Shown in pieces: positions 13,956-64,000 of a DNA stretch of 64,000 nucleotides (positions within the stretch are counted from its first letter, which is position 1; each line of letters opens with the position of its first letter). The position numbers and the translations under genes were made by a program. The notes under the pieces were generated by a model. That model ran no database searches. It was given only the letters and a program-made list of their open reading frames with translations, and was not told the origin of the DNA. This DNA comes from Moniliella sp. 'wahieum' (lineage: Eukaryota): positions 496,001 to 560,000 of the forward strand of contig RSEE01000023.1 in NCBI GenBank assembly GCA_003971905.1. Reading direction: 5' to 3'.

Positions 13956-15653
13956 GACGGGATGGGGGCGGTGGTCAGCGCTTGAGTGCCGGTGATGGCG
14001 GTGCGCTTTGGGCGGATGGGGTCACGTGCTGGGGTGCGCTGGGCCGCGTTCCGCTGGCTACGAGCTGGTCACCGATCACACCACGCGTCGCGGGGGCTGG
14101 GCGGGACGCGGGACACTCGTCACACGTCACGCGTCACGCGTCACCGCGTCACTAGTCACTGCCCCTGCCCACGCCCCCGTCGCAGCATGCCGCCTTCGTT
14201 CCGCCCGTCTCGGGTTCGACTTGCTTACTGGACGCTCGACGCTCTGCAGGGGTAGTGGGCGCGCCGCGCACCGCTGGCTGAGGTGCTCAGGACAGCCTCG
14301 ACATCAACGCTTCTGATGAGATCGATGAGACCTGGAGTCCAGATGGTCCTCGAGGGTGATGCAATCGCACTGGTGGTGGTGGTGGACTAATTCAGCCAGC
14401 AATGCCTACAGAGGAACTTCTTCCAGCAGCGAGTCGCCACCAGGGGCTAAGCTGCGATTGAAGCAAGGAAAAAGCAAGAGAGATAAAACAATGGAACTCC
14501 TAGGCTTGAAGAGGAACTGAAGGGACGTTGGCCAAAGCACGAGCCACCCGGTAGTGGCTCAACAGCTTCCCCCTTCACCCCTACACGCGTATTTGCCTGT
14601 CCGGAGTAGATAATCCAAGCCCGCATGTGCGGCACGAATGGCATCTGATGAATTCGATGACCCAGAAGATTCTCGTAACTATGATGCATTGCATACGTTT
14701 TGGACATTGAGGAAATCCTGGTCCGAGGGTAATCTCGTTCACACTAGCAGAGCCCCGACCACGAATCGCCAGGGGAGCTGGAGGGCACAGATGGTGAGGC
14801 TTACTTGAAATGGTGAGAGGTGTGTCATGGGACCGGATCCGAGGTGGGGACTTGCCCAGACAGTAAACAAAGAGGTGAGTGTGCGTGGGCAGCTTTACGT
14901 CTCTGAGAAGGGGATATATAATCGTCCTCATAAGAAGAGGATTATACTGACCTGAGGGAAATATAGTTTTGTGGGTCATATTCAACCCTAGTGGATGAGC
15001 GGAACGGAGGCAAGCGATCTGGGCGGAATGGTAGGAACGGACGCCCATGCACATTTGGTGGCTAGATCGTGCTAGGGTGCGACTTGGGAGGACTCGGCGA
15101 CCCTATACCTCAGATGCAAAGCAACCTTCATACAGCTCGTGAAGGAAAGTGGTGAGCCACACGTCTCCGAGCTAGCAACGTCTGAAGGGAAGGAAACATG
15201 AAGAGAGGAGGTAGATGGAGCGAGGACGGGAGCGCAGCCTGCGAGCGGAATTCTTCCGCCCGGCTAAGCGAGCGTAACCGCGTCACCGATCATGGATCAT
15301 CGATCAACAGAGGGCCGTGCAGGGGAACCCTAGCACCACCTTCCAATAGATCGGACCAAGAACTAGAATTGCAACGCAGCCCCACGGGAGCCAGCACGGG
15401 GGCGGTCTTCAGCTAGGTTTCCCTAGGCTTCTGTGGTTTCAACCTGATTTCGCACCCCGCCAGTGTTGCCGACCAGTGATGCTCTGGCAACTGCTAATGT
15501 GCGGGGACTGCCTCATCCGCGCTACTGGTCCCACACTGTCCCCGTGCCTCGAGGATATTTTTTCTGCCGCAGCAATCTTCTGCCCCGCCTTAAAACCACG
15601 CCGCCGACCCCCGGGCCGGCCTCTTTCACCACCGCCACCGTACTACATTCGCC

Positions 15654-17105
15654 ATGGGTAAGGAAAAGGTACGTCCTGTGCAGAGCACTGTTCCTTCTTG
15701 GCCGTCCCAAGCACCATGCTAACCACCGCTCCCATTTCAGCTTCACGTTAACGTCGTTGTCATCGGCCACGTCGACTCCGGCAAGTCGACCACGACCGGC
15801 CACCTCATCTACAAGTGCGGTGGTATCGACAAGCGTACCATTGAGAAGTTCGAGAAGGAGGCTGCTGAGCTCGGCAAGGGTTCGTTCAAGTACGCCTGGG
15901 TGCTCGACAAGCTCAAGGCTGAGCGTGAGCGTGGTATCACCATCGACATTGCCCTGTGGAAGTTCGAGACCCCCAAGTACCAGGTCACTGTCATTGACGC
16001 CCCCGGCCACCGTGACTTCATCAAAATGATCACGGGTACCTCGCAGGCCGACTGCGCCATTCTCATCATTGCCGCCGGCACTGGTGAGTTCGAGGCTGGT
16101 ATCTCCAAGGACGGCCAGACCCGTGAGCACGCCCTGCTCGCCTTCACCCTTGGTGTGCGCCAGCTCATCGTTGCCGTCAACAAGATGGACGCTACCAAGT
16201 ACTCGGAGGACCGCTTCAACGAGATCATCAAGGAGACCTCGACCTTCATCAAGAAGGTCGGCTTTAACCCCAAGTCGGTTCCCTTCGTCCCCATCTCGGG
16301 CTGGAACGGTGACAACATGATTGAGGCCACCACCAACATGCCCTGGTACAAGGGTTGGGAGAAGGAGACCAAGGCTGGCAAGGCCACGGGCAAGACCCTC
16401 CTTGACGCCATTGACGCCATTGACCCCCCCTCGCGCCCCACCGACAAGCCCCTGCGTCTCCCCCTGCAGGACGTGTACAAGATCGGCGGTATCGGCACTG
16501 TCCCCGTCGGCCGTGTCGAGACGGGTGTGATCAAGCCCGGCATGGTCGTTACCTTCGCTCCCGCCAACGTGACTACTGAAGTCAAGTCGGTCGAGATGCA
16601 CCACGAGTCGCTCCCCGAGGGTCTCCCCGGTGACAACGTTGGTTTCAACGTCAAGAACGTCTCGGTCAAGGACATCCGCCGTGGTAACGTTGCTGGTGAC
16701 TCGAAGAACGACCCCCCCATGGAGGCTGCCTCGTTCAACGCCCAGGTCATCATCATGAACCACCCTGGCCAGATCTCGAACGGCTACTCGCCCGTTCTTG
16801 ACTGCCACACGGCCCACATTGCTTGCAAGTTCGACTCCATCCTTACCAAGATGGACCGTCGTTCGGGTAAGACCATTGAGGAGACCCCCAAGTTCATCAA
16901 GTCGGGTGACGCTGCCATGGTCAAGATGATCCCCACCAAGCCCATGTGCGTCGAGGCCTTCAACGAGTACCCCCCTCTCGGCCGTTTCGCCGTCCGTGAC
17001 ATGCGCCAGACCGTGGCTGTCGGTGTCATCAAGTCGGTTGAGAAGACCTCCGGCAAGGGTGGCAAGACCACCAAGGCCGCTGAGAAGGCCGGCAAGAAGA
17101 AGTAA
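15654..17105 (+). CDS. TEF1: Translation elongation factor 1-alpha (intron after MGKEK)
   Basis: [65 protein letters not shown]; strong codon bias. Confidence 0.99.
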
Positions 17106-19571: not shown

Positions 19572-20431
19572 GGTGGGGGGGGGGGGGGGGGGGGGGGAGG
19601 GGGGGGCGCAGGGGGCAAAGAAGCGGTGCGGGACGAGTGGAGTGGTGTCGCTGCCGGCGAGAGGGCAGGCAATCGAGCAGATGCGAGTGGGTTGGTTAGG
19701 CTTAGGATGGTTGGTGTGTGATCGCATCGGTGATCGTGGGATAATTTGCAGGCACAGGCACCGTTTCAAATTTCACCGCCACATGCCAGGGCGCCTTGGG
19801 CGCAGCCTGACGCAGCCCCACAGCCAAGCGGAGCGTCGGGACGCTTGCCAAGCTATTCAGCTGAATGTTTCGATTGCCATTGAATCCGGACGATGATGCA
19901 TGATGCATGATGCATGATGAATGCTTCCCGCGTCTGCCCAGCTGCCTGCCCCTGCATCTGCCCACCCGCCCCATTCACGCGCCCGCGCGCCGCGCCGCGC
20001 GAGCTTACGTCAGTCGCATGCCACTCCCCGGCGGCTACTGCCGCCCCATGCTCCGCGCCGGCCAGAAGCTTTCCCGTCTTCCCGCCCTCCGCCTTCTGGC
20101 CTGGCAGTGGGGTGTTTTGAAGTACGTCAGCGGCAGTTCACAATCCGCGGAGCTGACATAAGGTAGCCGGGAGCCGATTCCCTGTTAACCCTAACTGGCG
20201 GCAGCCGGCAACCAGATGCTTTTTGTACATTTCATAATCTCAGCGCACAGGTAACGCTGGATTCCAAGGCGCTCCCATCGTGCATCGCTGCGGAGACAGG
20301 CTGTATATATACACGCGGGGTCTGTCTGCCGCATACGCACGCAGGCGCTCTGCATGCGTGTGCGCAACATCTCATTCGGCCTCCGTGGCAGCCACGCGCC
20401 AGCCAAAGCGTCGTCGAAGCACCGGGAGCGC

Positions 20432-22842
20432 CTACGCCGACGGCGCCAGCGCTTGCAACGCCGGCTCCTGCTCGATGCTGGGCATGGTATCGGTGATCAG
20501 GTCCCACGGCTTTTGCCGCCGCCATAGGCCAACAGGTTGTGCTTGTACCGGTCCCCCGACGCGCGCAGCAGCTCGGGCCGATCCGCCGTCGGCGCAAACA
20601 GCTGTCCATACAGGGCCTGCGCAATCGTCCGTCCAGCGGGTAGGAGTAGTACGCGGCCGGGTAGGATGCCAAGTGGCCGAACCGGCCCTGCCAGTCCAGC
20701 CCGCGTGCAAACGGAAGCTTGCCATACCGCGCATGCGTCGCCTCAAACACTGCCGTGCTCGCCGAGGGTGTGTGGCCCGCCCACGTCCCCTGCGGCGGAG
20801 GCAAGTGCAGTGCCTGATCCAGTAGCGAGAGCATCAGCTCGTCGTGGGTCTCCAACGCAGCCAACGACCGCGTAGACGCCGTCAGCGCCTCAACCTGGGC
20901 CAGCGGAAGCGGTAGGCCCGTGCGGTAGTGCCGCGCGTACATGGGCACCACCTGGGGATGGAGCAAAAAGTGTTCCATCAGGATCGATGGCACCTCAACA
21001 AAGTCGGTCGCGCAGCGTGTCCCAGATACGTTCTGGAATCGGTACGACCCACCATAGAGTGAAGCGTGACCCATCTCGTGGAACAGCGTCTCAATCTCGC
21101 TCCAGTGCAGGTAGGACTGGCTCTCGGCCGAGGCACCGCGTTCCGGGGCGCGGAAGCTACAGAGCAACGCCACAATCGGCTGTTGATAAAACCTTGACGG
21201 TCCTTGGTCTGGGCCAAACGGCCGGTAAACAAATCCCTGCCTCCCAAAGGTCCGGTAGGAGTGATGGTCTCCTTGCCATTCTGCAACGCCAGGTCTTGTA
21301 CGGTTATCGGCACATCCCCACCCACGTCGTCCAAGTCCACGCGACGAGAGCAGCGAACGGTAAAGTGGGCGGCGCCCATCGGCTTGCCCGGGCGGTCCCA
21401 TAGGTCAGCATAGATCGTGCCGACTACGCCACCTGCATCCTCATCGTAGACTTGGAGCTTCAGAACATCTTCGTGCCATGTTTCCCCTGGAGCAGGGGTC
21501 TCGAGACGGAGATGGATGCCAAAAAGGTGTGCCAGAGCCGACTGAGACCGCTAAAGACTGTGCCCACCGTAAAGAAAGAGCCGATTCCAACCTGAGCGGG
21601 TTGGGAGCGTGCCGTATAGCGCGCAATGAGGTACTCCTTGTCCCATGGTTGCAACTTACCCGATGGGCCGACATCGGACTTGTCGCTCAATCCATTCGCC
21701 AGCAACATCTTGCTCTGCTCCGTCAGTTGGGGGGCGATGTCGTTGAGACGTGCACTGAGAAAAGCAACCACATGCTCGGGCGTCTGGGCCAGCTTGTCCT
21801 TGAGCGTCATGTGAGCAAACGATTCGTGGCCGGTGAGACGAGCAAGTTGATCCGCTGTCCAGCAACTGCTCCAAGGTGGAAACTTGCCGTGCCCCACCGG
21901 CAAAGGTGCCCATGTAGGCTAACCGACGAGCCTCAGGGTTGGGCGCCAACGAAGTATTTGCAACAGCGCTGGGCTACCGGGGGGGATGGAGATGGAGCTT
22001 CGCCAGGGGCGGGTGGAGATTGGCGCATCGCGTCGTTCAACACGTCCTTCCGCATCCCCTCTAGCAATTTCAAAGGAATCTCCGTCGAGGGTCGATCGTC
22101 CTTGAGGAACCCAGCACCATCAATCAGCCCCTGGGAAAAGGCAGTGGAGAGCTGGAGAACGTCATTGCTGAGTGCAACAAACTGTTCCGCTCACGGTCAG
22201 GGAGATGGATGGCACTTTTCTCAAAGTCGGCCAAGTACATATCCGCCACCCGCCTCCCTTCGCGGTAAGAGACGAATACAGCTCCTTGTCACTGACGACC
22301 GCCTTGAGAGGTACATGTCAACGTTCGTATTGAGTTCGTCATGTAGTTGACAAACGCCATGGGCCATCTCGGAGGCCTCGCGCCAGTCAGGTTGGGGGTG
22401 CGCAGTGCGCAGGAACTCTGCCAAGTCGATCGTCTTGCACAACAGATCCGACAGACGGTCCAAGTTGCGCACGGCTTGTTGCATGTCCCGACTCTGGTTC
22501 CCGCCCGATGAGCACGAGAGATGCGCTCGACAAGCGCCTGAGCACGAGACTTGGTGTCCTCAGCGATAAAGATAAAGTCGTAGGGTGTACGCAGCCGTCT
22601 CACCAAAAAGACCCGTCGGCTCCCCTGCTGTACCAGGGGCAGATGCGCCCGAATCAATCACAGTGCGCAATTGTCGTGTTCGTCTTGCACTGTCTGGGTA
22701 GAGTAGGGGCGAGGCAGGGGGAAGCAAGGAGGGTAGGGGTAGGGCCGAGCCAGGGTCGGTCGGTAGCCAAGAGCAGCATGCCGCCCACAAAGGGCTGCGC
22801 TGCGTGAGGTGGCAAAGAAGTCAGCCTACGGAGCGCCAGCAT
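20432..22842 (-). CDS. OCT1: Mitochondrial intermediate peptidase (M3 metallopeptidase)
   Basis: VRNLDRLSDLLCKTIDLAEFLRTAHP, GAAHFTVRCSRR, ETLFHEMGHA (HExxH), NVSGTRCATDFVEVPSILMEHF, WQGRFGHL. Confidence 0.93.
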
Positions 22843-23155: not shown

Positions 23156-24099
23156 ATGGCGTCTCGTGGCCTCATGTCGATGGGCCAGCTCGCCCGGGCG
23201 GTCATGCCCTCTTCGATCGCTGGTGTCCGCCCCCGTGTTGTGGCTCGACCTGTATCGGTATCGATGGCCGTGCGTCACGCGTCTGGCTGGCTCCACCCTG
23301 GTGTGTTGAACCCCCACCAGAAGAACATGGCCCGCAAGATGCGCGGTCGTGGTCGTGGTAACGGCCTGGGTAAGACGTCCGGTAAGGGTCAGATGGGTCA
23401 AACGTCGCGTTCGGGCCCGCGCAAGCCCGGCCTGGGTTTTGAGGGTGGCCAAACGGCCCTGACCAAACTGTTCCCCAAAAAGGGAAAGCGGAACCCTCTG
23501 GCCAAGGAGTACGCCACCGTCACTTTGGGTCGCATCCAGGAGTGGATCAAACGCGGTCTGATTAACCCGAGCCAGAAGATTACCATCCCTGTCCTTGTCC
23601 AGACCAACTGTATTCCCGTGTCCACGATGGTGTCAAGCTGTTGGCGAACAACTCGGAGTACTTTTCGACTCCGATCAACATTGAAGTAAGCCAGGCCACG
23701 GAAGAGGCTATCAAGCTAGTCGAGATCAACGATGGCACGATTACCACCCGCTATCACGGAAAGGTCTACCTGCGCTCGTTGGTCCGCCCTTTCAAGTGGC
23801 TCCACCGGGGGCGGCCGCTTCCTACGCCCCTGTTCCTTTCCGGAAGAAGGACTTGAGTACGTTTCCCCTCCTGCGCCCATTGTATTGGTCCGTGGCTCTG
23901 CTTGCCCCCAGAAACTAACCTGTGTGAATGGCCAGTGTACTACTGTTCCTTCCACCACCGCGGGTTCTTGGCCAAGGAGGCGATCTTGGGTACCAACCCC
24001 AAGCTCAATGTTTCTCTCCTTGACAAGATCGAGCCTAAGCGGAAGTACCAGCAGGAGATGACCAAGAAGTTCTTGGCCGAGCGCAAGCCGCGACGGTGA
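23156..24099 (+). CDS. Mitochondrial ribosomal protein uL15m (one intron ~23857-23936)
   Basis: RGRGRGNGLGKTSGKGQMGQ..GFEGGQTALTKLFPKKG uL15 signature; presequence-like N-terminus. Confidence 0.9.
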
Positions 24100-33100: not shown

Positions 33101-33771
33101 AGAATGTGAGCCCCCCCTCACTTCGAGTTGCCGCCCCATCGGAGAGTGTGCCGCGTCCTTTGGCGCCCGAAGAGCCTTTTACTCAATAAACCTGACCCAT
33201 CATGTCCGACTCTCGTCATGTTTTCAATGGCGTAGTACCTTCAAAACAGTCGGTCTATGCTACTCCTTTTTCCCCTGATGCCTCTAGCTGTCACGGTTTT
33301 ATACGATCGCGCCGAGCGAGATCTTCGTTGATGGTTTACCGGTAGCCCTCTTTTGCTCCTGATGACCTGACAGGTAGAGCACATTCTTACGGCCTTCCCG
33401 CTTACCCTGTGGGCTGCATCTGGCGGTGGGGTCGTAGAAAGCAGAGATTTGCCCGCAACTCATTGCACTGCCACAAGGCAGCAGCAGCTGAGAGCTTCAG
33501 AAGCCAAGCTAATGGTGTCAGAAAAAAAAAGACGGCGGGTAACGTTGAACGTTAATTATAGGCGTTAGGACGCTTGGGCGCCTCCATCACTTGCATCACT
33601 TGACGTCATGTGCTCAGACACGTCGATCGGCGGGGACGATGGCGATGATGGGAGAAGAGGCTGGGCGGGCACTATATAAGCGGGCAACGAGCCTTTTCTG
33701 TCCATCGGCCACATCCACCTGCTCCAGCCAGCCCCGTCCCTCAGCACACTCATCTTGAGATCGTTGGCACC

Positions 33772-40673: not shown

Positions 40674-41683
40674 TTAGGCCGACTCGGTGGCAGGCTGCTC
40701 GCCTCCTTGGTGGTAGCCGGAGCCGCTGCGGCCTCGCCGGACGCAGCCGCCGCGACAACCGGGAGCAACGTCGGGGGCAAAGATCGAAGCCTTGCTCGAG
40801 AAGAGGCCAAAGCGTTCGTAATCGACCCCGAGACGGCGTAGACGAAGTACGAGAGGCAGAGACCCTTGGACAGAAGGTCAAGGACACCGTAGTAGATGAA
40901 CTCGCCGTCGGGAGAAATGTCGTTGCTAGCATCGGCCACACCCAGGCATCACATACACAATCGTCCACAAGGCAAAGCCCGAAACGACAGGAATGTAAGC
41001 CCAGAAAACGTCCGAGCCAGTCTTCTTGGCAGCCAAAAGAGCCGGGCCAAAGAGCACCCACAGGACCCACGTCAGGCGCACACGCCGAAGACAAACCAAC
41101 CCCACTTGTAGCTGCTGTGCGTAAGAGCACCAGCCAATCCACAGACGACAGCGACAGTCTCAATGAAGACCGTCATGAAGATGGTAGACAGGGGAACGGG
41201 CGAGACGAGAAGAATGGCAATGATAACGAAAGGCGTCGAAACAAGCCAGTCGACATAGCGCGAGATCCTGATCAATAGCGAAAAGTCAGTACCTCATTGG
41301 CAAGGCAGTTGCAACCAAATGCAACAAGGCCTCAATGAGTGAAAACGCACCAAAGACCGCGTCGCCACATTGTTAATCCCGTTGCCATTGCCTTTCCAGT
41401 GACCAGAACGGAACTCGACGGACACAGGAACCGCGCCGAGGTTGGAAGCAAGAGCGTACCAGTTGAGTGCATTGCACGCCAACGTAGCAGCGACGAGGTA
41501 GTTAAAAGTACGGTGGCCGCGGTTCACCGCGAAGAAAGTGTAGGCCGAGAGAGCCAAAAAGACAACCGTTTGAACAGCGAAAATGGCCCAAGCAAAGTCG
41601 CTGCCGTGCGAGTTGACAGTGACGTTGGACGCAACCGGGTTGCTCGACACGGAGTCGCGTGCAGTCATCCAAGGGAGTGACAT
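40674..41683 (-). CDS. Fungal microbial rhodopsin / Hsp30-Yro2-like opsin, copy A (intron 41268-41350)
   Basis: GSDFAWAIFAV, YALASNLG, RYVDWLVSTP (helix C), YKWGWF, SPDGEFIYYGVLDLLSK (helix G). Confidence 0.92.
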
Positions 41684-43774
41684 GTCGAATTAAGATCGAG
41701 AAAAGTACAAAACAAGGGGGATAGGGCGGGAGAAGGCGAGAAGATGAATGTAAAAGGCTTTGAGCGAAGCCAGGTGCGTATGACAGGTGAGGGGTGGAGG
41801 ACTCCGACGATGCCAGCTGCGGGGGGGCATATATATACACATCTACAATAGGTCCGTGCAGCGGTCGCGCATCGCATACTATAGCGAGAGTCCATCGAAG
41901 GGGCAGATGCCTAAGAGCAACGTATGAAGACTGTTGCGCGAGGGCGCAGTTCAGCCACAGTGCTAGGCTCCCGCACAATGGCTCTGCCGCCAGGGTCCTC
42001 GCGGGCGTTGCCCATCCCTCGATACCGAATGCCAGAGGGGCGCCCCATTGGGCTGCTGTCGACTTGAGCAACACCCTACGTTGGTGTACGTGAGTGCAGA
42101 GCGTTGGGTACACTATAGTGAAAGACACTCCTCCTCCTCTCCCAGGCTTCCGTTGGCCGCCGAGCCCAACGTAAGAGGCTTGAGCTCCAGGCTGGTCTGC
42201 GCGCGCGATCTGAGTGCTCAGGCTGAGTGCCCAGGAGAGCACCCGAGCGCATCAGCCCCACACCCTGTTCAAGCTTCAGTGCGTGCGAGCATTAGAGAGG
42301 CTGAGCATATTGTTGTACTCAGGCTGAGGCGCTGAGGCGCTGAGGCGTGGAAGAGGCGCAGAGAGACACCTAGAGACGAAATGACCAATGATTAATGACT
42401 AGTGACTGCGGGGGGCTCGGCGCCTCAGCGCTGCTCAGCGCGCTCAGCTGGAGGTATACCGGCTTCCAGAGCTTCCTCTGGGGCCACTGTCGTCGATCGC
42501 AGAAGTCAAGTCAAGAGTGGGCCGGCACGCGGGCACCCCGGAGGGAGAAGGGCCCCGATCATGATATCAGCTGCATCAGCATATTTGCATCATCATGATT
42601 CCCGAATATCCTCATATTATACGCGCACACAGGATCACGCCAGTTGTGTGGTCCCTTCGTATATCCGCGGATAATATATTCGCGAGGTTGCGCCACAGAC
42701 GTGACGGTATTTTTTTGGCTCATCGACTAGTCAGGTCATGTCAAGTGACTATTATAGTGACCCAGTGACAGCCCGTGACTATGACTCTGAAGCCTAATAG
42801 AGCGGGCCTGACTTTTCGGTCTCTCGCGAGTGGCACTGAGTACGGAACAGACGCTACGCTGGGATCTGATATCGTGAAGGCGGGGGGGGGTGCCAACTGC
42901 GCGGCGGTGGAAAACGCAAGCCAACAAGCAGAGCCAAGGTGGACCCCACATCTCAATGCTCTCCGCGTTCTCGTCTGCGCCGCTCTCAAAGGCCCTATAT
43001 ACATCCTATCCGATCTCCACAGCGTCACCCTGACGATCATGATTAAGGAGTGATGACTCCACTGAGAATGCCGGGAAAGAGGATAAGGCGCCGTAGAAGG
43101 GGCTTCGGTAGCGATGAAGACACAATACCAACAGGAAGAAATATTTTGAGCTGATCAGGGCCCTCCGCACGACGCGCGCCGCCGATGTGGTGTTTTTCGA
43201 GTTTGAGGACGTGGGTATTTGACGCGGACGGAGTGTCATTAATCTGATGTTTGCAAGGAAAAGGGGGGGTTGCGAGTGTGGGCTCCAGTGGTGCGGGGAG
43301 AGCGCTCAGCCTGAGCGCTTCGACAGGGCTCACATGCACAGAAGGCTCTAATATAGACATGTGAACGTTGAACGCTGGACGTGTCGAGCGTTGTTGTACG
43401 TAACATAAGATTAGCGCTTAGTGGCTGAGCCTCAGCGCTCAGGCGCTCAGGCTGAGCTCAGCCCAGTAGTACTATGGCGAGTGCCCTAGTGGCTCTTGTG
43501 ATCGAGATCTATTTCAAAAGCCCCGAACCATTCGGGGCATCGTGCATCGAGTGACCGAAAAGGAAGGAGGTATGAAACTTGAGCGCCTTTCTAGCAGTGC
43601 TTTAACCCAGCCACTACCTTTGCGGGGTTAATATTACTTTTGGTGCAGCCCCTCTGGCCGTCAAAAACCAAGCCAAGACGTCACTGTGTTCTGTGGCACT
43701 TGGCATATCGGGAATGATTAATGATCGAAATGAATGTACGTGATGCGCGTGATGAACGATGGACGATATGGCAA

Positions 43775-43834
43775 TCACTAGTCACTAGTCACTAGTGACT
43801 TGTGGCCTAGTGACTAGTGACTAGTGACTAGTGA
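43775..43834. repeat. Inverted repeat: (TCACTAG)x3, 11-nt spacer, (CTAGTGA)x4
   Basis: Read directly; arms are exact reverse complements over 21 bp. Confidence 0.9.
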
Positions 43835-46482
43835 CCGGTGCCGGTGACCCCAGCTGTTTAATCAAGCGTCAAGCTTCAGCTCAAGCTCTCAATCTGAGAT
43901 CTCAAAAGGCTCAAAGCGTTCGCCCAAGGCTGACGCTCAGCTCAGCCTGAGCAGCTTGAGCTTCACAGAACTCATCAACGCTCCAGCGCCGCTCGACAAC
44001 TGTGAATATTGGACGACCGCGTGCTGAACGTCGAAGACCGGTAGGCGAACGCCGAGCGCTGAGCCGCTGTGCTTAGCCTATTAAGCGCACAATGTCAGCG
44101 GCGGAGCAGCACTGCCAGTACTGAGCCGTTTTTGAACCTCAGCGCCTCAGGCCTCTTCGGCGCCAGCAGCCTCGGCGCCTCAGCGTCTCATCTGAAGTGC
44201 TTGAGCGCTGTGAGCTTGATGCGCTCTCTGGATCTGAGTTAGGCCTGAGGCTCAGGCCTGAGGCCTGAGGAGACGAACGCAGCCAACAGCACGGGGGGTG
44301 TATATGTTACCTGCACAGGGCCCTGCCAGCGAGGTGCGGCTGCCAAACTGACGTGATTATGCACGTGCGGCTGAAGTCATGTCAGCGTGTCAGAGAGTGA
44401 CCCGGTGGCTGTCACCATGTCACCGGCATTGGGAAGAGACGAGCACCCTCGAGCACCTACACGTTCAACGTTACTAGAAACGTTAAACGGTGATAATCGA
44501 TAAACGTGCTCTTTCCAACCATTTCAAGCTTCATATATACGTAGGCTTTTTGTGCAACACTTTAAGGCGTTGGTTCTCTCGACGTTCGCGTTACGCGTTA
44601 CTGCGCATTGCCCTCTCCAAGGATCGATGAGTGATATGGGTTTCACCTGACACACTCTGACCGGCTGACCGCTCTACCGCCTCCCTAGATCCGGCAGATG
44701 CGTCAGATGACGTCTCAGATCAGAGATGTCAAAACGTATGAAATTTTTGCCATTTCTTTTGCCACGGGCACTCACAATATCTCCCGCTCACACTCATCCA
44801 ACCTCGTCTCTTTTTCAAATGTGGAGAGCAACCACACAGACGATAGTTCCTGCTTTACAGCTTTGCACATCATGGGATGGGTGAACAAGAAAATCTTCTC
44901 TTGCCCCTGACGATCGTCATCCATGGTGCAGCCTCCAACCTTCGCGCTTCCTTGAGACAGCGAGATCCACAATCTCGTCTTTCAATATGAGTCAGTTTTT
45001 TTGTGGGTGCGCTCTACGCACTCTGACGACCGGGCCGAAGGGCTGTATCGAGTATCGAACACCTCCGCACCGCTCTCCTGAAGCCCTGAGAGGTTGAAGG
45101 TTTGCGATGATTGGGCGTTGAACGTTGGACTTGAAGCTTCAACCGGTCACATGGTCACCCGGTCACAGTTGATCAACGCGATCAACTGATCCCCGAGGCC
45201 TCCCGAATAGTCGATGATGCTGATGGGAGGAAGAGATGCCTGACAACCTATATGCACCGCCAGCCACGCACTGCAGCAAACAGCAGCTGTGGGTGGGTTC
45301 AGATTCAGACGCTGAGATTCAGCTCTCGCCGGCCAGAGACCTGAGGCTCTCAGGCCTGGGCCTGACGGCCCCAGCATCCGTTTGGCACCCTACACGACGG
45401 ACTATATCATGTGTACACATACGTAAGAAAATTTCCTCCGAACACAAAAGCCGTTAAAATCCAAACTCACAGGGTCACTTTCCTGCAGGCGCACACACCA
45501 AAAGCGTGTATCAGCTTTGTGCTGCCACACCTAGGGTGCCGTGATGCACACATTCATGCCTCACAACAAACTGCATGCTGCTTACCTAGTACATGAATAT
45601 TGAGGGCCTTGAGGATTGAGGCACTACTTCCATACCCCACAACGGATGCACAGGCCCCTTTTCTCAGCCCCTTATAGGCGCCTTAGCGCTCAACAGAGCC
45701 TTAAGCTTTATGAGCCCCTCAATCTAGCTCAATCCCACCTCTCACACAGCAGTTGAGCGCTTAGTGCTAACGTGTTGTTCAATGCTCAGGCGCTCAGGCA
45801 TCATGTTTAGTCGCTGAAGTTCAGCTGAGGTTCAGCGCTGGGGTTCAGCGCGCTGAGCATCATGCACCATGCTGAGTACACTGAGTAATACCATGCGCGC
45901 TGCCGGTGTGTATTTGTGCCAACGCCAGCATCAGTGAGAATCGAGACGGTCCACATGCCACCCAGACATGCGATGTCATATGATTCCACACCCAATGCCG
46001 AGCACGGTCATATGCTGAGGTCAACAGGCGCCCGGTGCCGCTCAAGCGTTGCTGGGGTTCTGCCTTTTGAGGCTGGAAGCCTGAGACTTGGCGAAGATGG
46101 TGGGGTGTGAGATCTGAGATCTGAGACCAAAAGAAGAGATGATGAATCAGTACTCAGTAAACAGTACTCAGTGAGGTCACTGGGCCCGTGAGATGGCAAG
46201 CAGCAGCTGTCTGAGCGCTCCTGTCGCTTCATTTGAAAAGATTGATGCCTGAACTCCCCAGGACTATATCCGAAAAGGCCACCGTGATGGTCACACACTC
46301 TTGCACCGCACAGACCATCACGAAACTTCCCTTACCACAAGCCCGCCTGCCTGTTTCTTTTAAGTACCGGCATCTTGCCAAACAAAAGCCAATTCAAGCT
46401 CTCTCGCCGATTACTCGCCCCTTTCACACGCTTCTCTTCCATCTCCCCCTGTTTACATCGCCCAGTTTTCTCTCTTGCCGCC

Positions 46483-47422
46483 ATGTCTGCTCCTGGATCA
46501 AGTCCAGTATTCACCAACCCGGTCACCTCGAACGTGACCAACACCTTTAGGGGGTCTGATTTTTCCTGGGCCATCTTCGCGGTAGCAACTCTTGTATTTG
46601 TCTTCACTCTCGTTTATACTTCGTTTGCAACCCCCACCGGGAAACGGACCTTCAACTTTCTCGTCGCTGCTGCCCTGCTTTGCAATGCACTGAACTGGTT
46701 TGCCATTGCTTCCAATCTGGGTGCCATTCCTGTCACTGTCGAGTTCCGTTCGGGATCCTGGACTGGACGCGGTAACGGACGGGACAATGCTGCGACTCGC
46801 TCTATTTGGTGAGTTGGGATCATTCTCGTTTATTGGAGCTTTTGTGCTTACCACAATGTTTTTTTTCCCTTCTTCAGGATCTCTCGGTACATCGACTGGT
46901 TGGTTTCGACGCCCTTCATTATTTTGGCCATTCTCCTTGCCTCGCCTGTTCCCCTTTCTACGGTGTTCATGACTATCTTTATTGAGACGGTTGTGGTGGC
47001 GCTCTCGCTCTTCGGTGCCTTGACGCCCAGCTCCTACAAGTGGGGCTGGTTTGTGCTTGGCATCTGTGGTTTGACGTGGGTGTACTGGGTTATGTATGGG
47101 CCGGGTTTGATTGCCGCTAAGAAGGCGGGCAAGGACGTGTTTTGGGGATACCTGCCCATGAGCGTTGCTTTTGGCGTGTTCGGAATTGTGTACGTGATTG
47201 CCTGGGTGTCTCGTCGGGGGCAACAACATTGCCCCGGACAGTGAGCAAGTATTCTATGGTATTTTGGACTTGGTCAGCAAGCACCTTTTGCTTCCCTACC
47301 ACGTCTACAATCTGGCCTCGGTGGATTACGAGCGCTTTGGCCTCTTCTCGGCCAAGGCTTCCTTGTTTGCCGATCCGCTCTTGGCGCCAGGCGAGCCTTC
47401 GGCGAGGAGGAAAGACGGCTGA
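46483..47422 (+). CDS. Fungal microbial rhodopsin / Hsp30-Yro2-like opsin, copy B (intron 46809-46877)
   Basis: GSDFSWAIFAV, FAIASNLG, RYIDWLVSTP, YKWGWF, APDSEQVFYGILDLVSK; intron at the same position as in copy A. Confidence 0.92.
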
Positions 47423-50400: not shown

Positions 50401-51138
50401 GACATGCTTACCACTGCCATTCGTGTCCAAGCGCACTACATACGATTTGGAAGCGAATGGCGGGCGCCAGAGGGTTCTGACTTTCGGCTGTGGGGACTCC
50501 ACGGGTTTCTAATTGGGGCTATATTTGCCTCCAGCAGCAATTCACCCTCCGTCAGAAATGAGCATATAGGCACAGCAGTTCCTTTTAGCAGTCTTTTGTC
50601 CAAACGGTCAAGTTCGGTAAACGATATGAATGCGACGGCAGAGGTGGTTGCAACAGAGACCCTGCTCGGATCGAGGTGACACGGGGGGAAGGTGTAAGAG
50701 AGGAGCCACTGCAGACAACGTTTTCAACATTGAGTGTGGGACTGGCGGGGCACAGGAGAGCGTGGCTGCAAGGAGCTCGCAGTGTGCATGGTGACATGTG
50801 ACATGTGCCATGTGCCATGCGACAGTTGGTTGAGCGCTCCCCACAAGCCCAGCCACACGGCACGGCGCCAGTGCGCTCACCCTCCCCGCTCGGCAGTACG
50901 CAGATCCCGCCACACTGTTCCCCTGCCACGGCTGCCACGAGCCGCAGCCTCTGGCTACTCCCGCACAGCGCCAGTCTGCCCAGGCACGCCGCCCGCGTGT
51001 GGGGCAGACATTACGCTCGTCACGCGTCACGCAGCAGAGCGCACTAGCCCATCGCCACCATTTTCCGCGTTTACTTGGGGTCCCCCCGCCTCTCACACCC
51101 CAGCCCCACCTCCATCTCCGCCTTCACGCCCCCCCCAC

Positions 51139-54300: not shown

Positions 54301-55229
54301 AGCTCTTGCTCGGCCGCTTCCCAGCTGCCTTCCCCGCGGCCGTCCCGCGGTCCTGAGCCTGGTGCCCCCCACCAACCAACTTGACCGCTACATTGCTCGC
54401 ATCGCCCCCTTCCCAGCGCGTCCATTCCCGTGGGGAGCTAGCATGACCCGTCTGGACGTGCCCACGTGATGCCCGGCCCGCGGTTTGACCTCTGGTTGTG
54501 TTGCAAGTCTTGCGCGGTCCCCAGTACCCCGCTTGTGCTCTTCTGTTGTTTTCTGTTCCACTGCATATACCACTCCTTTTTGACTCCACCTTGCTGCCTG
54601 TCTTGTCTTAGATCTTATCAACGAACGTTGATGAACGCAAATGCATCTTGTGGAATGGGACGTCCGCTGCAGATGGCGGCGCGTGCCGAGTGCTGCTGGT
54701 GACAATGGACCTCCAGATGAGAGGAGGAAAGATATGCAGAGGGGCAAAGTAGAGCAGGTGTGCGCCCACGGCTTGGCTCATGCCAGTACCAGTCCGTGCC
54801 CGTCGTTTGCCCAAGACATCCATCAGGCCACCGAACAGACACGTGACTGGGCAGGACTAGGTTTGGTCGGCAATATACTACGGGCAATACGTCAGCGCTG
54901 AGGCTGGGCGCGGCTTTGGCGGAGCGGGCGTTGCGGACCATGGGTGACACATGGCGCGTGCCGCCCATGTCACATGGCCTGTGCATGGGGCAGACCCCAC
55001 CTGGCACGGCGCCCGTGGGGCGGCGGCGTCGGCGTGGCTCTGAGAGTGAATCTGGGCAGCGAACAGCCACGCTCGATGACGTTCGGCAAGGCAGAGCCGA
55101 AGCGCTTAGGCTAAGCGCTCATTAAGCGCCGGGGCAGTGCAGGGCGATGCCGCCGCCTCTTGAAGCGCAAGCGCGTAAAAGCGCCCATCCCGTCTTCCTT
55201 CTTCGCATCCATCTTTCCTCCCCCAGTGC

Positions 55230-56635
55230 ATGCTCTTGAGGACGGTCCCTCGTCTCGCTTCTCGTTCTGCCTTCTTCCCAGTGGTGCGTCCCCCGGCCTG
55301 TTCGACCACTCCCGTCGTCACTTCGACGCCCCCAGCTAACCTCTTGCCTCTCCCCGCCAGATTGCCTCCTCTCCTACCTTCCTGCCTGCCCGCCGCTTGC
55401 AAACTTCCGCTCTGACCATGTCCTTCCACCAAGAGTCCCACAAGCTCCTTGTCATCCCCGGCCCTATTGAGGTAGCTGATGAGGTCCTCTACGCCAATGC
55501 ACACCCGTCGATGAGCCACACCTCACCCGAGTTTGTGCCCATCTTTGGCGACTGTCTCCGCATGTTCCGCCAGATCCTTTACGCGCCTTCGGCCCAACCC
55601 ATCATTACCTCTGGCTCGGGCACGCTGGGATGGGACCATGTGGCATCCAACCTGGTTGAGCCGGGGAAAGTGCGCTGGTGCTCAATTCGGGTACTTTGGC
55701 GACAGCTTTGCCGAGTGCCTCGAGACGTATGGCGCCAAGGTGGACCAGATTGGCGCGCCGGTCGGTTCCAAGCCAACCCTGGCCCAGATCGAGGAGGCAC
55801 TGAAGCAAAAGAAGTACAAGCTGATTACCGCCACTCACGTTGACACGTCGACGGGTGTGTTGAGCGACGCCAAGGGGATCGCCGAAGTGGTCAAGCGTGT
55901 CTCCCCCGACACCATCTTTGCTCTGGACAGCGTGTGCAGCGTGGGTAGCGAGGAGATTCGTCAAGACGAGTGGGGCGTGGATGTGGTGCTGACGGCGTCG
56001 CAAAAGGGCATTGGATGCCCGCCGGGCCTGATGCTCCTCTCGGCTTCGCCCAAGGCGATCAAGGCCTTTGAAACCCGCAAGGCGCCGCCAACGTCCTACT
56101 TTGCCTCTTGGAAGAAGTGGTTGCCGATCATGAAGGCATACGAGGCTGGCAGTGCTGCCTACTTTGCCACTCCTCCGACCAACTTGATCTACGCTTTGCA
56201 CCAGAGCTTTGAGACGATCACCAAGGGAGTGCCGTCGCTGGAGGAGCGCTTCAAGCTGCACAAGGAGACCTCGGCCAAGGTCAAGAACTTTGTCAAGAAT
56301 GAGCTCAAGCTCGACCAGCTCGTTGCCGATGGGATTAAGGATGGTGCCAACGGAATGACGGCCGTCAAGTACCCGAGGGCTATGGCGCGGGCGATGTGGT
56401 GCCCCGCATGGCTGCGCGCAATGTGGTCGTTGCCGCTGGGCTGCACAAGGAGTGCAAGGACAAGTACTTCCGCATCGGCCACATGGGTCTCTCAGCCACG
56501 ACCCGCAGTAGCGACATTGACCATGTCCTCCAGAGCCTCAAGGAGTCGCTCGCCGAGGCGGGCTACAAGCCGGAGGATGTGGGTGTTGATGGAGGCTTAT
56601 TTCTCCTAGACCCAGCCGCTCCCCATGTGAAGTGA
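55230..56635 (+). CDS. AGX1: Alanine-glyoxylate aminotransferase (class V PLP enzyme) with upstream presequence exon; second ATG at 55418
   Basis: LLVIPGPIEV, SGSGTLGWD, THVDTSTGVL, VDVVLTASQKGIGCPPG (PLP Lys), YFATPP, YFRIGHMG. Confidence 0.93.
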
Positions 56636-57495
56636 CTAGTGACGATTGATTTTTGGCTCGGCAGCTTGCATGTCTGCTTGGATCCCCTTAAACTTGTTCT
56701 CAGTGCTATCGACTGCAGGACAAGTGCGTATGGAATGAACCCGTTGTAATGCATCATGTCAAGAACATGCCTTGGAGTAAAATGTACCGTACACCACCAT
56801 CGCAAGGGAGGGGGATATTGCATCCAAAACGCCTCAGGAGGTTTGATTCAGGCATTGTGTTGATGAGAGTGGTTTCCCTTGGAAAACACAGTGCATGACG
56901 TGGCCCAGCCACCCCGGGGCCTGGCGGGGATGAGTCGGTGTGGGCTTCGATCTACGGCGTAGACGTCGTAAACGTAAATGAATCAATGATCAAAGAAATG
57001 ATCGATGATCCGATGGTCATCGGTCGTATTCATACAGCAACGAAGGGCAAGGAGGAGCCCATGGCAACCCTATTCATTTGCGCTGCGGCGTCCGGCGGCA
57101 TTGGGCGGCAGTCGTGCTTTGAATATGCACCCATGCGTACAGTGGCCATGTGCCTCTCCTGCCCCCAGAAGGGCAGCCTGGCGCGGGACCTGTCCCTGCG
57201 TTCATCAATGCGGCGAGGGTCGACCACCATCCAGGCCGTGGCCTAGCGAGCGACAGTACCACCAGCTCAAGCCAGGTCTCCAGTCAAGTGCGTATGCGTC
57301 CCTTCCTGTTTGGCGAGGCCGTGCGAGGGGTGTAATCGGGTTGGTTGATGCGCGATGCTTTCCGCTGCACAAACCAAGGCTCCGTCTCTCTCCCCCTCTG
57401 CCGCCCATGCTCTTCCCGAGACTGTCCCGCCGTCTCACGTCCGAACCGGGGTGACTCCCAGGACTGCCTGCTAACCTTTGGATGGTGTTTTCAGG

Positions 57496-61455: not shown

Positions 61456-62631
61456 TTAGGCGCTGTACCCCCATTTGACCTGGGAGGAGCTGGAAGTGAC
61501 AATGTCATGGTACGCGGTACCGACAGCAAGGAAGTTTTCGGTCGTGTCGGGGATCCACTCGACGACCTGCGCCTTGGTGGTCTTGTCATCCGCCACAATG
61601 GTGATCCACTTGCCACAGGCATCCTGCAGCTTGTCGTTGGGATACGCAGCCGAGGGACCGACAGCAACCGTGATGGTGTCCTTTGCGACCGTGATACCGG
61701 GCACCATTGCGGGTCAATTTCATCCACCATTGCAGTGTGGTCGCGTAGGTGGCTGAGCTCGCATCCGACGCCTTGGCCTTCGACGCGCTCGCCACGTGGG
61801 CAATCTTGGACTCGGCTGCCTTGATGGACGAAGAAGAAGACGAGGACTTGGAAGTAGGCGAGGACTTGGACGAAGACGAAGACTTGGAAGCGGACGAAAG
61901 AGTGGGGCCACATGGGGAAGGCGTACCATCATTGAACGACCACTCGACATTGAAGATGCCGAGCACGTGGTTGGCAAGCTTGCCGAACAGGCCGTACGTC
62001 AAGTCAATGTCGCAAGGGTTGAGGCAAGTCTGCGTCGAAGCTGCATCAATGCAAAACAACGCCAGTTAGACACGGTCAGTTCGACCATGGATGGGGGTAG
62101 TGAAGAGGCAACGTACGCGACTCGGGGCATTCGTCCATGATGCGAGCTTGCTGGGAACCCAGGATGCCCTTGATGGTAATGGTCTTGAAGCAGAGGTCCT
62201 GGCGGCTGATGCCTTGGTCGGCAAAGTACTTGTATCCAGGCGTGGACAGAGCGACACCCATCTGTGCAAAAAAATGGGTCACCAGTCAGCACCAACCCCA
62301 AAATGGCTCACTCCAGAGCCTTTGCTCTCAGCACAGATACGAACGGTGTTGTCATTCATGTCAGGGCCACCACACGAGCCTTGGGCAGATTCGCCCTCGG
62401 TCTCGGGGTGGTAGTAGAAGGTGGCCTGGCCTTGGATCCCACGGGCAGCAACCTTGGCAGCCAGCGTGGCATTGTTAGCAATGTAGTCGTGGCGACCAGG
62501 ACGAGGGGCCGGGCACGCGGGTGCTCAAAGTGGCCGCCAATGACACGGCGGTGAGGTGCGTGGTGGCCGGCGAGCGCACTGGTGGCACCAAGCAGGAGGA
62601 GGAGGAGGGAAGTAAGGACCGTGGGTGCCAT
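61456..62631 (-). CDS. Secreted RlpA/expansin-like protein with two DPBB-type domains and a Ser-rich linker
   Basis: Signal peptide MAPTVLTSLLLLLLGATSALA; GSCG..VALS..CFKTITI..ARIMDECPE|C..DIDLTYGLF..VEWSF; second module VAVG..ACGKWITI..KAQVVEW..VKWGY. Confidence 0.75.
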
Positions 62632-64000
62632 AGCGATCGAATCGGAAATGGGGGAGGAACGGAGAAGGTGGGCAGGGGGGTGGAGGAGGAGGTAGGAGGA
62701 GGCAGAGGGAGAGGAGGAGGTAGAGGAGGCGGAGGAGAACGCCAGGATTCTCTTTGGCAAGCGCAGTGAATATGTAGGAAGCCGTCCCCGGCAACCCGTC
62801 GCTAGCCTTGCAAGCCAGGTTGTTAGGAACCGCCACGCGAGACCGGACGACGCGTGATGGAGTGATGCGTGACCGGTGCTGACTGGCAGACGGAGAGGTT
62901 TTGCGGTGGCCGCTGTCCCCATGCGGGTGCCCATCCACTGGTTGCACCACTCCACTGTCGATCTGTGTCCGCACGAGGGCAGTGTGCTGATTCAACATTC
63001 ACCGGTCACAGCGGCATGCGCAGACGTCACCCGGCACAGGGCCTGTGCGCAGACGGCACGGCCCCACTGGCCCAGTGTAAGTCTCGGCATCTGGGCGATC
63101 ATCGATCAACGTGATCAGCACCGGTGGCCGGGACCTGCCGGGTTCTGCGGCAGCCGGCTGTGCCAGCGGCGCTCAGCCACGGCGGCACACGAAGCTCATG
63201 ACGCACATGAGCGATGCATCGCACACCTGGACATGCCACGGGAACAGTCGAGCGTCGGTTGCGAGTCTGCATGACGCATTGCCGGTTACAGCTGCCGGCA
63301 TTACCTGCATTACCCTCTACCGCGACGGCCAAAGTTGTCCGTCCCGAGTAGGACAACCGCAGTAGCCCTGCACTCACAACTCGGGCTGGAGCTTGTTGAA
63401 TACGTTGAATGTCGAAACACAAACACCCGTCGTGCTCGGCGTTCCGCTGGGCTTGGAAGATTGCGATACCATCAATATCATCATCGACACAGCCCCCGAG
63501 GAAACAAAGACCTTTGTGTGGCCCTGAGAATCTGCAACGCCATCAATCCAACGGGGAGGCACAGACGGTTTTAACGTTTACGCGTTACGTCGCACAGTCC
63601 AGGCTGCGCTGGCTGAGTGATGTGAGGCCCGTGGGGCCTGTAACATGTAAGGCTTCTCAGCACTCGGTGCAGTTGTGATTACTCAGTCCTCAAACTCGAG
63701 TTGCCATGAGCTATTCAGTACTCCGTACGCAACGTGTACTCAGCTGCGGAGTACGGGTACTATCCGAGGCTCGGTTGCATGGACCAAGTGCAAAGCAGTT
63801 AGAGGTGTCGATCCACAGCAAGCTAGCCTAGGCTATACCAAACCCACGCTAAACCCTAGGCTCAGCCTGAGCGGTCAGACTGACCGGGTTGAGTTCTGCG
63901 TTCAACTGAACGTTCAACACGTTCACCCCCAGCCGCATCGAGCCAGCCAACGAGGCCCAGCAGGCCCAGCCACGCCCAGCCACGCACCGGCGCCCATTGA

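Follow-up and report, generated by a model that had tools for sequence, protein, structure and literature searches.

Heptanucleotide microsatellites consist of short head-to-tail units in non-coding DNA, decay at their edges and can grow by ordinary slippage, and the arrays described here share these features along with a copy number of fewer than two to about eight. The unit here, however, is a grammar, i.e., a T-N-A anchor with any 4-nt palindrome, whose cores vary between loci and between neighbours, and TSA-N4-TSA with a non-palindromic core is not enriched. The cyanobacterial STRR and related bacterial arrays of heptameric or self-complementary repeats are similarly intergenic with odd-length units, but they are prokaryotic and have one fixed consensus per family, whereas the present host is a eukaryote and its cores vary freely.

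In yeast, homogenisation of inverted-repeat arms and spacer inversion are described (PMC8604942). Template switching of this quasi-palindrome kind would explain symmetric double differences between units as well as the inverted half of the array at 43775, but in its known form it acts on existing, spacer-bearing inverted repeats and makes no 7-nt direct repeats, and T-N-A specificity has no description for it. Footprints of mariner/Stowaway, Ac/Ds and PIF/mPing transposons, the last with a T-N-A duplication, have an order of duplication, footprint and duplication that resembles a palindrome flanked by a T-N-A repeat (PMC4561436); unlike such footprints, the present pattern has 15 cores, no elements nearby in the window and no enrichment of TNATNA. 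Ab initio DNA synthesis by a nickase plus a polymerase yields, in vitro, tandem short palindromes that each carry a constant enzyme site (PMC10520511). Its products share the logic of a constant element (T-N-A here) joined to a free palindrome, but this is a test-tube reaction with bacterial enzymes and, for a fungal nucleus, an analogy. The present pattern is statistically strong and fits no motif or repeat family found described in the literature searched, in line with the initial annotation, which had not recognised it as a described feature; its lineage-specificity is judged against 16 kb of one relative only.

T-N-A-anchored palindromic heptamers and their enrichment

The window, i.e., the whole 64-kb stretch that was analysed, is nuclear DNA of an Ustilaginomycotina-like (smut-related) fungus, with an EF-1alpha best match of 92% identity, and the micro-repeats are a non-coding feature of this fungal nuclear genome. 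Their unit is a T-N-A triplet plus a 4-nt palindrome at a 7-nt period, equal to a 7-bp odd palindrome, nnT-N-Ann, in which the N of T-N-A is the centre at each unit. All ten strings cited in the initial annotation were found in place, and the geometry that it had reported, even dyads alternating with odd T-N-A dyads every 7 nt, was confirmed. There are 39 odd palindromes whose arms reach 6 nt or more, where 18.4 are expected (maximum 30); the central base is G or C in 36 of them, compared with 59% in simulations.

The existence and enrichment of the pattern are established by TNA-pal4-TNA with the same N, which has 42 hits at 28 loci in this one 64-kb window against 1.9-3.3 expected (simulation maximum 9) under Markov backgrounds of order 1, 3 and 5 with 100 simulations each. 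The excess is 13- to 22-fold across the three orders. Repeat and palindrome go hand in hand: TSA-N4-TSA with the same S has a palindromic N4 in 33 cases vs. 1.45 expected; with a non-palindromic N4 it is not enriched in the window (32 vs. 24.8), and neither is plain triplet doubling, TNATNA (48 vs. 40.3). The effect is specific to T-N-A triplets: N4 is palindromic between 17 of 33 TGA pairs, 16 of 32 TCA pairs, all six TTA pairs and all three TAA pairs, and in approximately 10% of the other listed same-triplet pairs. The pattern is absent from a comparison set of 213 kb from other eukaryotic loci, including 16 kb of one relative with 90% identical EF-1alpha, where 6 of 229 are palindromic vs. 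42 of 74 in the window.

Of 49 exact period-7 runs that reach 13 nt or more, 20 contain a palindromic hexamer, which is of the A....T type in 17, with G or C as the seventh base in 16 of the 17; such a hexamer was found in none of 12 period-8 runs and none of 11 period-9 runs. Tandem Repeats Finder returned 14 period-7 rows among 94, and the tandemised consensus gives an A-xyy'x'-T hexamer in 10 of the 14. Compared with 100 order-3 Markov simulations, palindromic-hexamer pairs spaced 7 nt apart are in excess when identical (12 vs. 0.42 expected, maximum 3), when non-identical (27 vs. 15.3, maximum 24) and when both are A..T (17 vs. 0.48, maximum 5); at lags of 5, 6 and 8-12, there is no clear excess over the same simulations.

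The pattern is independent of palindrome sequence, since the inner four bases vary, as had been claimed, over 15 of the 16 possible palindromic tetramers in roughly even use. The earlier judgement that one transcription-factor motif cannot account for it therefore holds, and the even use points to copying or symmetry rather than base-specific recognition. Successive T-N-A triplets have the same N in 42 of 57 hits, a complementary N in seven and another in eight; among the 27 single-hit loci, 17 have the same and four a complementary N, where independence expects 32% of each. Since N is mostly the same, the arrays are predominantly direct 7-nt repeats built around an internal palindrome rather than perfect inverted repeats. 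The repeated local inversion proposed in the initial annotation is thus not the main signature and can be seen at a few loci only: in the array at 43775-43835, which sets three C-type units opposite G-type units, and at 43301, 44241 and 55101, each with a 19-nt odd palindrome; hairpin opening, in its simplest P-nucleotide form, failed a prediction (y = x' in 10 of 45 locus-types, with 25% expected by chance).

At most loci the unit is present in fewer than two full copies (runs of 10-13 nt), and of the 17 single loci with the same N, 13 have an exact period-7 run of at least 12 nt; expansion is visible in arrays with exact period-7 runs reaching 27 and 29 nt. Adjacent units with different palindromes were observed eight times against 0.2-0.7 expected. 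Of 19 neighbouring units with two differing positions, 5 retain a palindrome, a statistic of small numbers; neutral decay predicts 11% (6 of 54 variants).

Catalogue and genomic placement

The arrays are located in non-coding DNA: one of the 42 hits lies within a rough codon-usage mask of coding sequence, which takes in 38% of the window and is not a gene annotation; within that limit, the concentration outside CDSs noted earlier holds. The features are listed below by position in the window, with strand for the two opsin genes; the other features are unstranded.

14114..14160, GTCAC-word array, TCACACG TCACGCG TCACGCG TCACCGC-G TCACTAG TCACTG, with 7-nt spacing, once 8-nt; in the spacer common to EF-1alpha and a minus-strand ORF with an N-terminal IML1 domain, just above the upper end of that ORF (14068)
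15283..15306, decayed TCA-phased array, TCACCGA TCATGGA TCATCGA TCAACAG; about 420 nt upstream of the EF-1alpha ORF
19893..19923, (TGATGCA) array of three exact copies and a fourth that varies, containing an exact period-7 run of 27 nt; upstream of a minus-strand cytidylyltransferase gene
22313..22326, ACATGT-c-AACGTT-c, in which two unlike hexamers are chained
33540..33554, TAACGTT-g-AACGTTA, an odd palindrome of 15 nt; upstream of the Bap31 ORF
40917..41683, minus strand, left rhodopsin paralog, 53-68% amino-acid identity to the right copy; island boundary
42181..46250, the island, a spacer of about 4 kb that separates the two divergent opsin paralogs and contains no ORF reaching 110 codons
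42389..42409, mixed chain, TGATTAA TGACTAG TGACTGC
43301..43319, 19-nt odd palindrome, AGCGCTCAG-c-CTGAGCGCT (GCGC-TCA-GcC-TGA-GCGC)
43357..43382, TGAACGT units decaying rightward, ACATGT-g-AACGTT-g-AACGCT-g-GACGT
43713..43770, consecutive TGA triplets with a palindrome after each that differs from one to the next: TTAA and TCGA, then, irregularly spaced, GTAC and GCGC
43775..43835, largest array, (TCACTAG)x3 facing (TGACTAG)x4, with 26-nt arms that are 96% complementary; the unit at the right end switches from CTAG to CCGG
44241..44270, 19-nt odd palindrome overlapping TGAGGCC repeats, AGGCCT-gag-g-ctc-AGGCCT-g-AGGCCT-g
44585..44601, (TTACGCG)x2, the T-T-A form of the unit
46108..46126, (TGAGATC)x2.7; upstream of the right opsin paralog
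46147..46172, degenerate (TCAGTAC) array
46288..47241, plus strand, right rhodopsin paralog (Pfam Bac_rhodopsin, E 9e-10); island boundary
50791..50824, (TGACATG)x2 followed by (TGCCATG)x2
51018..51032, CGTCACGCGTCACGC, TCACGCG units
55101..55119, AGCGCTTAG-g-CTAAGCGCT, an odd palindrome of 19 nt; upstream of a class-V aminotransferase ORF
56631..56643, AGTGACTAGTGAC; about 25 nt downstream of the aminotransferase ORF end
56998..57010, ATGATCGATGATC; upstream of the RPL13e ORF
63096..63112, neighbour units TCATCGA TCAACGT, with a symmetric double change from TCGA to ACGT
63571..63591, T-T-A chain with different palindromes, TTAACGT TTACGCG TTACGTC

The island is a hotspot: 22 of the 42 hits and 13 of the 28 loci fall in it, as do 55 of the window's 184 odd palindromes of 7 nt with a TNA core. 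Its T-S-A density is twice that of the rest of the window, that of CTSAG is approximately fivefold, and GCGCTCAGGC is among the words recurring within it. As judged from crude ORF positions, most loci lie upstream of an ORF start and no more than a few hundred nt away from it (IML1, cytidylyltransferase, Bap31, right opsin, aminotransferase, RPL13e, and EF-1alpha). Three convergent spacers were recognised, totalling about 4.2 kb, with one hit in them, and the orientation of TGA vs. TCA relative to the downstream gene is mixed. Strong folding of single-stranded DNA was found only at 43775..43835 (-25.4 kcal/mol, z -9.9); same-N arrays fold no better than shuffles (z -0.6 and -1.2). No dispersed repeat family carrying the arrays was found in the 64 kb.

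Origin of the arrays

The explanation that we tentatively prefer is that the arrays are products of a local mutational process, not protein-binding motifs, and we infer each of its mechanistic steps. A primary event may create a short direct T-N-A repeat (often T-N-A-x-y) around a self-complementary tetramer, either as a repair scar or as a 7-bp duplication at a T-N-A-centred symmetric site. Ordinary replication slippage would expand the 7-bp unit, from which the same N in successive units would follow, and occasional strand switching could invert part of an array or restore the symmetry of a mutated unit, which would yield neighbours with different yet palindromic cores. Open promoter-side DNA, above all the 4-kb divergent-opsin spacer, would be the preferred substrate. 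In favour of this view are the enrichment, the T-N-A specificity, the joint occurrence of repeat and palindrome, the even use of tetramers, the sameness of N, the expansion and inversion visible at some loci, the palindromes kept in differing neighbours, the non-coding location, the lack of a dispersed repeat family carrying the arrays in the 64 kb and the absence of the pattern from the 213-kb comparison set. The first step is put forward with no enzyme named because, to our knowledge, no documented repair or replication process gives T-N-A specificity together with a zero-spacer palindrome. Against a mutational process, TNATNA is near expectation (48 vs. 40.3), the simplest P-nucleotide prediction fails, and the clustering at gene starts with 13 of 28 loci in one divergent spacer fits promoter selection equally well.

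Such selection would keep the dyad lattice as a cis-regulatory or structural promoter element, for instance of the light-sensor opsin pair, the actor being a two-fold symmetric protein or local non-B DNA (triloop hairpin or cruciform); we regard it as possible but unlikely. The position of most loci upstream of ORF starts, the share of the opsin spacer and the single hit in three convergent spacers (about 4.2 kb) all speak for it, but the gene models are crude, most intergenic DNA in a fairly compact genome is upstream of something, the locus at 56631 lies about 25 nt past a stop codon, and TGA and TCA are mixed in orientation to the downstream gene. The recurrence of words such as GCGCTCAGGC in the island and the palindromicity kept in eight differing neighbour pairs, as compensatory change under selection would keep it, stand against an even use of 15 of 16 cores, and we know of no DNA-binding protein that reads symmetry without reading sequence. 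A structural role is opposed by the folding of same-N arrays, which does not exceed that of shuffles, and by the restriction of a strong hairpin to one locus.

An origin from cut-and-paste transposons duplicating T-N-A (PIF/Harbinger-like), or from another T-N-A-breaking enzyme, is improbable. The T-N-A copies would be the target-site duplication, the palindrome would comprise two bases per inverted terminal repeat or be hairpin-derived, and slippage would have expanded the 7-nt period afterwards. A target-site duplication would place the same N on either side of the palindrome, as is seen, CTSAG, with its approximately fivefold enrichment in the island, resembles the extended palindromic target of maize PIF, and the insertion of many PIF/Harbinger-like elements near genes also counts for this origin. 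On the other hand, 15 tetramers would require about as many element families with different termini, no transposase-family match was found among the 150 largest of 228 ORFs of at least 110 codons, the 64 kb yielded no dispersed repeat, TNATNA is not enriched, and the one-base P-nucleotide prediction (y = x') is at chance level. Mariner-type footprints retain both duplications plus element-end bases, and Ac/Ds footprints are palindromic copies of flanking DNA; PIF and mPing, according to the same paper, excise precisely, with matching duplications never observed leaving both copies, which tells against footprints (PMC4561436).

About equally improbable are structure-driven microsatellites, in which heptamers self-complementary at six of seven positions would form slipped hairpins and expand more readily, with no specific enzyme. 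A palindromic hexamer plus one base is the maximal self-complementarity of a 7-nt unit and is seen in 20 of the 49 period-7 runs, but any palindromic hexamer with any base would be predicted, and the A....T type accounts for 17 of the 20 with a G/C extra base in 16 of the 17 (chance approximately 1 in 8); other base pairs would also be more stable than A·T next to a G·G or C·C mismatch. Palindromic repeats are known to grow in vitro with the help of hairpins, and the largest array is a near-perfect hairpin, whereas same-N arrays fold no better than shuffles and most loci, with their short runs, are too short for hairpins.

Chance, or an assembly or base-calling artefact, is barely credible even for evidence from one window, as no simulation exceeded nine hits against a 13- to 22-fold excess, no sequencing error mode is known to us that would produce arrays of varied palindromic heptamers, array sequences differ between loci and avoid coding DNA, and the EF-1alpha ORF reads through 460 codons unbroken.

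Repeat unit and its enrichment

The repeat unit of the window is a heptamer composed of a T-N-A triplet and a four-base palindrome (pal4), which in its rotated form reads as a palindromic hexamer A-xyy'x'-T plus one base (x' and y' being the complements of x and y). Chained hexamers of this kind were first described from the sequence by the initial annotation, and all the strings cited there are present in the window. TRF returned 94 rows, among which 14 have a period of 7, and 10 of these 14 give an A-xyy'x'-T hexamer once tandemised. Exact runs of period 7 that reach 13 nt or more number 49, the longest being 27 and 29 nt, and 20 of them contain a palindromic hexamer. This hexamer has the form A....T in 17/20, and the seventh base is G or C in 16 of the 17. 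No palindromic hexamer is found in the exact period-8 (0/12) or period-9 (0/11) runs of the window. In comparison with 100 order-3 Markov simulations, identical palindromic hexamers are paired at a lag of 7 nt 12 times (0.42 expected) and A..T/A..T hexamers 17 times (0.48 expected), with no clear excess at lags of 5, 6, and 8–12 nt.

All 64 triplets W were scanned as W-N4-W for a palindromic N4. The spacer is palindromic in 17/33 pairs of TGA, 16/32 of TCA, 6/6 of TTA, and 3/3 of TAA, while it is mostly near 10% for the remaining triplets listed. TNA-pal4-TNA with the same middle base in both triplets (same N) has 42 matches at 28 loci, against 2.3, 1.9, and 3.3 expected under Markov orders 1, 3, and 5, respectively, and a simulation maximum of 9. 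The palindrome is essential to the pattern, since same-S TSA-N4-TSA (S being G or C) is in excess with palindromic spacers (33 vs 1.45 expected) and not with non-palindromic ones (32 vs 24.8 expected). As many as 15 of the 16 palindromic tetramers are used, TATA alone being absent, and usage is even, without preference, at both the outer base x and the central dinucleotide. This bears out the view that one transcription-factor motif would not explain the pattern, because the cores vary freely. TGA, TTA, and ACGCGT are motifs of bZIP, MCB, and homeodomain sites, which were rejected for the same reason. A function as stop codons in all three frames was also rejected, as the orientation is mixed and palindromes are not needed for it. 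No description of a lattice of T-N-A and free-palindrome heptamers was found in a literature search that left subscription journals largely outside, which is not proof of absence.

When any middle base is allowed, there are 57 TNA-pal4-TNA matches, with N the same in 42, complementary in 7, and otherwise in 8. At the 27 single-hit loci, N is the same in 17, complementary in 4, and otherwise in 6, while independence predicts 32% same and 32% complementary. Because N is mostly the same, what prevails is direct repetition of 7 nt around an internal palindrome and not a perfect inverted repeat. The repeated local inversion suggested earlier therefore does not hold as the main signature; it does agree with the inverted half of the array at 43775–43835, in which (TCACTAG)x3 faces (TGACTAG)x4. 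An exact period-7 run of at least 12 nt is present at 13/17 of the single same-N loci, where the 10-nt core alone would give less. Neighbouring units differing at two positions are palindromic in 5/19 cases vs 11% under neutral decay, although these numbers are small.

Every N is the centre of an odd palindrome. Across the whole window, 39 odd palindromes have an arm length of 6 nt or more (18.4 expected), and their centre is G or C in 36/39 vs 59% in simulations. At a spacer length of 3 nt, enrichment is seen for the perfect 9-nt odd palindrome TSA-xNx'-TS'A (19 vs 6.6 expected), which lies at the heart of three 19-nt palindromes at 43301, 44241, and 55101. Seven loci were folded as single-stranded DNA and scored against shuffled sequence. 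The sole strong fold was 43771–43840, with −25.4 kcal/mol and a z of −9.9. Four of the seven folded moderately (z −2.2 to −3.2), three of them being the 19-nt palindromes, while the same-N arrays at 14114 and 19890 (z −0.6 and −1.2) folded no better than their shuffles. On these seven folds, the repeat loci do not generally appear to be hairpins. Odd palindromes also occur away from the heptamer arrays, for instance, at 5728–5744, 24062–24076, 37603–37617, 58480–58496, and 63034–63048. Of the 39 longer-armed ones, 10 fall inside the crude coding mask.

Location of the repeats and the opsin spacer

The pattern is real, strong, and non-coding. The claim that it lies outside CDSs agrees with the coding mask, which is crude, based on codon usage, and covers 38% of the window; as a rough guide only, it contains 1/42 same-N matches. 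The hotspot, or island, at 42181–46250 constitutes 6.4% of the window and holds 13/28 loci and 22/42 matches. It corresponds to the spacer of approximately 4.5 kb that separates two rhodopsin paralogs:

40917–41683, minus strand, left rhodopsin (Bac_rhodopsin) paralog
46288–47241, plus strand, right rhodopsin (Bac_rhodopsin) paralog

The paralogs stand head to head, and their aligned parts are approximately 80% identical in nucleotides and 53–68% in amino acids (the latter by tblastn). Their arrangement resembles an inverted duplication of some age. There are no ORFs of at least 110 codons between 42251 and 46288. The density of T-S-A is twofold and that of CTSAG approximately fivefold that of the rest of the window, and the island contains 55 of the window's 184 TNA-centred 7-nt odd palindromes. 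The 15 loci outside it, in approximately 60 kb, are still several times the whole-window expectation. Loci are mostly positioned a few hundred nucleotides upstream of ORF starts, a tendency only, drawn from crude ORF positions, and one lies approximately 25 nt downstream of a stop codon.

The island also carries period-8 repeats of GCTGAGGC / GCGCTCAG at 42323–42347, 43435–43452, 44137–44190, and 45784–45799, alongside many palindromic words of GCTSAGC and CCTSAGG. The period-8 repeats can be parsed as TGA/TCA + G + GCGC, a variant related to the heptamer unit with one base more.

A control of 213 kb was composed of 80 other eukaryotic (metagenome) loci retrieved via EF-1alpha. Same-N TNA-N4-TNA pairs are palindromic in 6/229 (2.6%) of the control vs 42/74 (57%) of the window, a modest comparison since most of the control sequence is coding and its composition is different. 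The closest of the 80 is a metagenome contig (L001, 1–15906, approximately 16 kb) with EF-1alpha 90% identical to that of the window, and it has a single same-N TNA-pal4-TNA match. Its long unbroken ORFs, intron-poor genome, G+C of 51%, and EF-1alpha neighbours different from those of the window mark it as a compact-genome relative without the heptamer lattice. As these neighbours differ and offer no orthologous spacer, the control loci serve as a composition control only.

Origin of the heptamer arrays

Microsatellites share with the window the head-to-tail copies of a few-base unit, as in the 14 period-7 TRF rows and the 49 runs. They would, however, have one unit sequence per locus and no shared constraint between loci, whereas the loci here share the grammar of T-N-A and palindrome, and 8 neighbouring pairs of units carry different palindromes (0.2–0.7 expected). 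The arrays are short tandem repeats in behaviour, with a grammar common to all loci.

The favoured reading, held tentatively, is that the heptamer arrays are mutational in origin. A primary event would leave T-N-A directly repeated on either side of a self-complementary tetramer. Slippage would then expand the 7-nt unit, and strand switching could account for the inversion of half the 43775 array and for neighbouring units that differ yet remain palindromic. A strict symmetry that is independent of sequence speaks for interstrand copying and against base-specific recognition, while the fixed T-N-A points to something sequence-specific. The modal period-7 runs of 12–13 nt are compatible with a decayed 7-bp duplication or with a 5-bp T-N-A-x-y duplication to which two complementary (P) bases were added on one side. 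In yeast, short inverted repeats are documented sites of template switching (PMC8604942). The nearest analogy in logic is the in-vitro synthesis by nickase and polymerase, which yields short repeated palindromes bearing the nickase site (PMC10520511).

A bolder and rather unlikely reading is that the lattice records an activity of this fungal lineage, as yet undescribed, that writes palindromes at T-N-A breaks. The breaks would come from a nuclease, a transposase, or a repair pathway, and rejoining via a covalent or templated intermediate would create a new zero-spacer palindrome. Such 7-bp scars might seed self-expanding repeats, and promoter DNA would in effect be rewritten.

The excision footprint of a PIF/Harbinger-like transposon, with its T-N-A target-site duplication, is an attractive alternative. 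PIF/mPing generate T-N-A duplications in which the middle base is free, and other families leave duplications together with short palindromic or end-derived bases (PMC4561436). The 3-bp T-N-A with a free middle base is indeed found here (TGA, TCA, TTA, and TAA only; same N in 42/57). However, PIF-type elements excise precisely (PMC4561436), and each family would be expected to leave constant footprint bases, in contrast to the 15 different cores of the window. No Pfam transposase was found among the 150 largest ORFs of the window, and self-BLAST of the window gave the opsin paralogs and the arrays themselves and nothing else, so a dispersed repeat or MITE was rejected. The plain triplet doubling TNATNA shows no excess in the window. 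In hairpin-type hAT/Transib/RAG-like systems, the palindromic bases would complement the adjacent flank, so that a pentamer x'TNAx, once duplicated and given a single P base on each side, should have the central dinucleotide x'x. This one-base P-nucleotide prediction also fails: CGCG (4), GCGC (5), ATAT (1), and TATA (0) together make 10/45 locus-types vs 25% by chance.

A selected promoter element fits the location of the loci, but it would have to be read by symmetry independently of sequence, and we know of no such reader of DNA. Structure-driven expansion alone leaves unexplained the A....T form of 17/20 hexamers and their extra base of G or C. Chance or artefact is very unlikely in view of the enrichment statistics.

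A fixed symmetry with free sequence and a constant T-N-A anchor is, to our knowledge, not an outcome of base-reading proteins. If mutational, the pattern would be a legible trace of breakage, hairpin formation, or strand switching, usable for studying the birth of short palindromes and new microsatellites in a eukaryote, and a handle on why promoters collect both. If selected, it would represent a novel class of promoter element, one recognised by shape. Under either reading, the T-N-A/palindrome pattern is simple to count genome-wide.

Host and genes of the window

The DNA of the window is eukaryotic, with a G+C of approximately 58% and genes split over frames. There are no known RNA genes in the window by Rfam matches at the gathering score (0) or tRNAs (0). 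The protein genes are as follows:

Rpb2, CWC25, IML1/DEPDC5, EF-1alpha, cytidylyltransferase, M3 peptidase, Sec1
RhoGAP, Bap31, two rhodopsins, class-V aminotransferase, RPL13e, NUDE

The EF-1alpha ORF is unbroken over 460 codons and nearest to Ustilaginomycotina, with identities of 92% to Pseudozyma flocculosa, 91% to Ceraceosorus, and 90% to Exobasidium. The M3 peptidase is split at 21525–21532 into two ORFs in different frames, approximately 7 nt apart, with continuous Pfam profile positions (148 to 146), which suggests a frameshift in the assembly or the gene, or an alignment that runs over into a very short intron. A run of approximately 32 G (93% matches) at 19575–19606 lies inside the long minus-strand cytidylyltransferase ORF, where it is read as a proline run.
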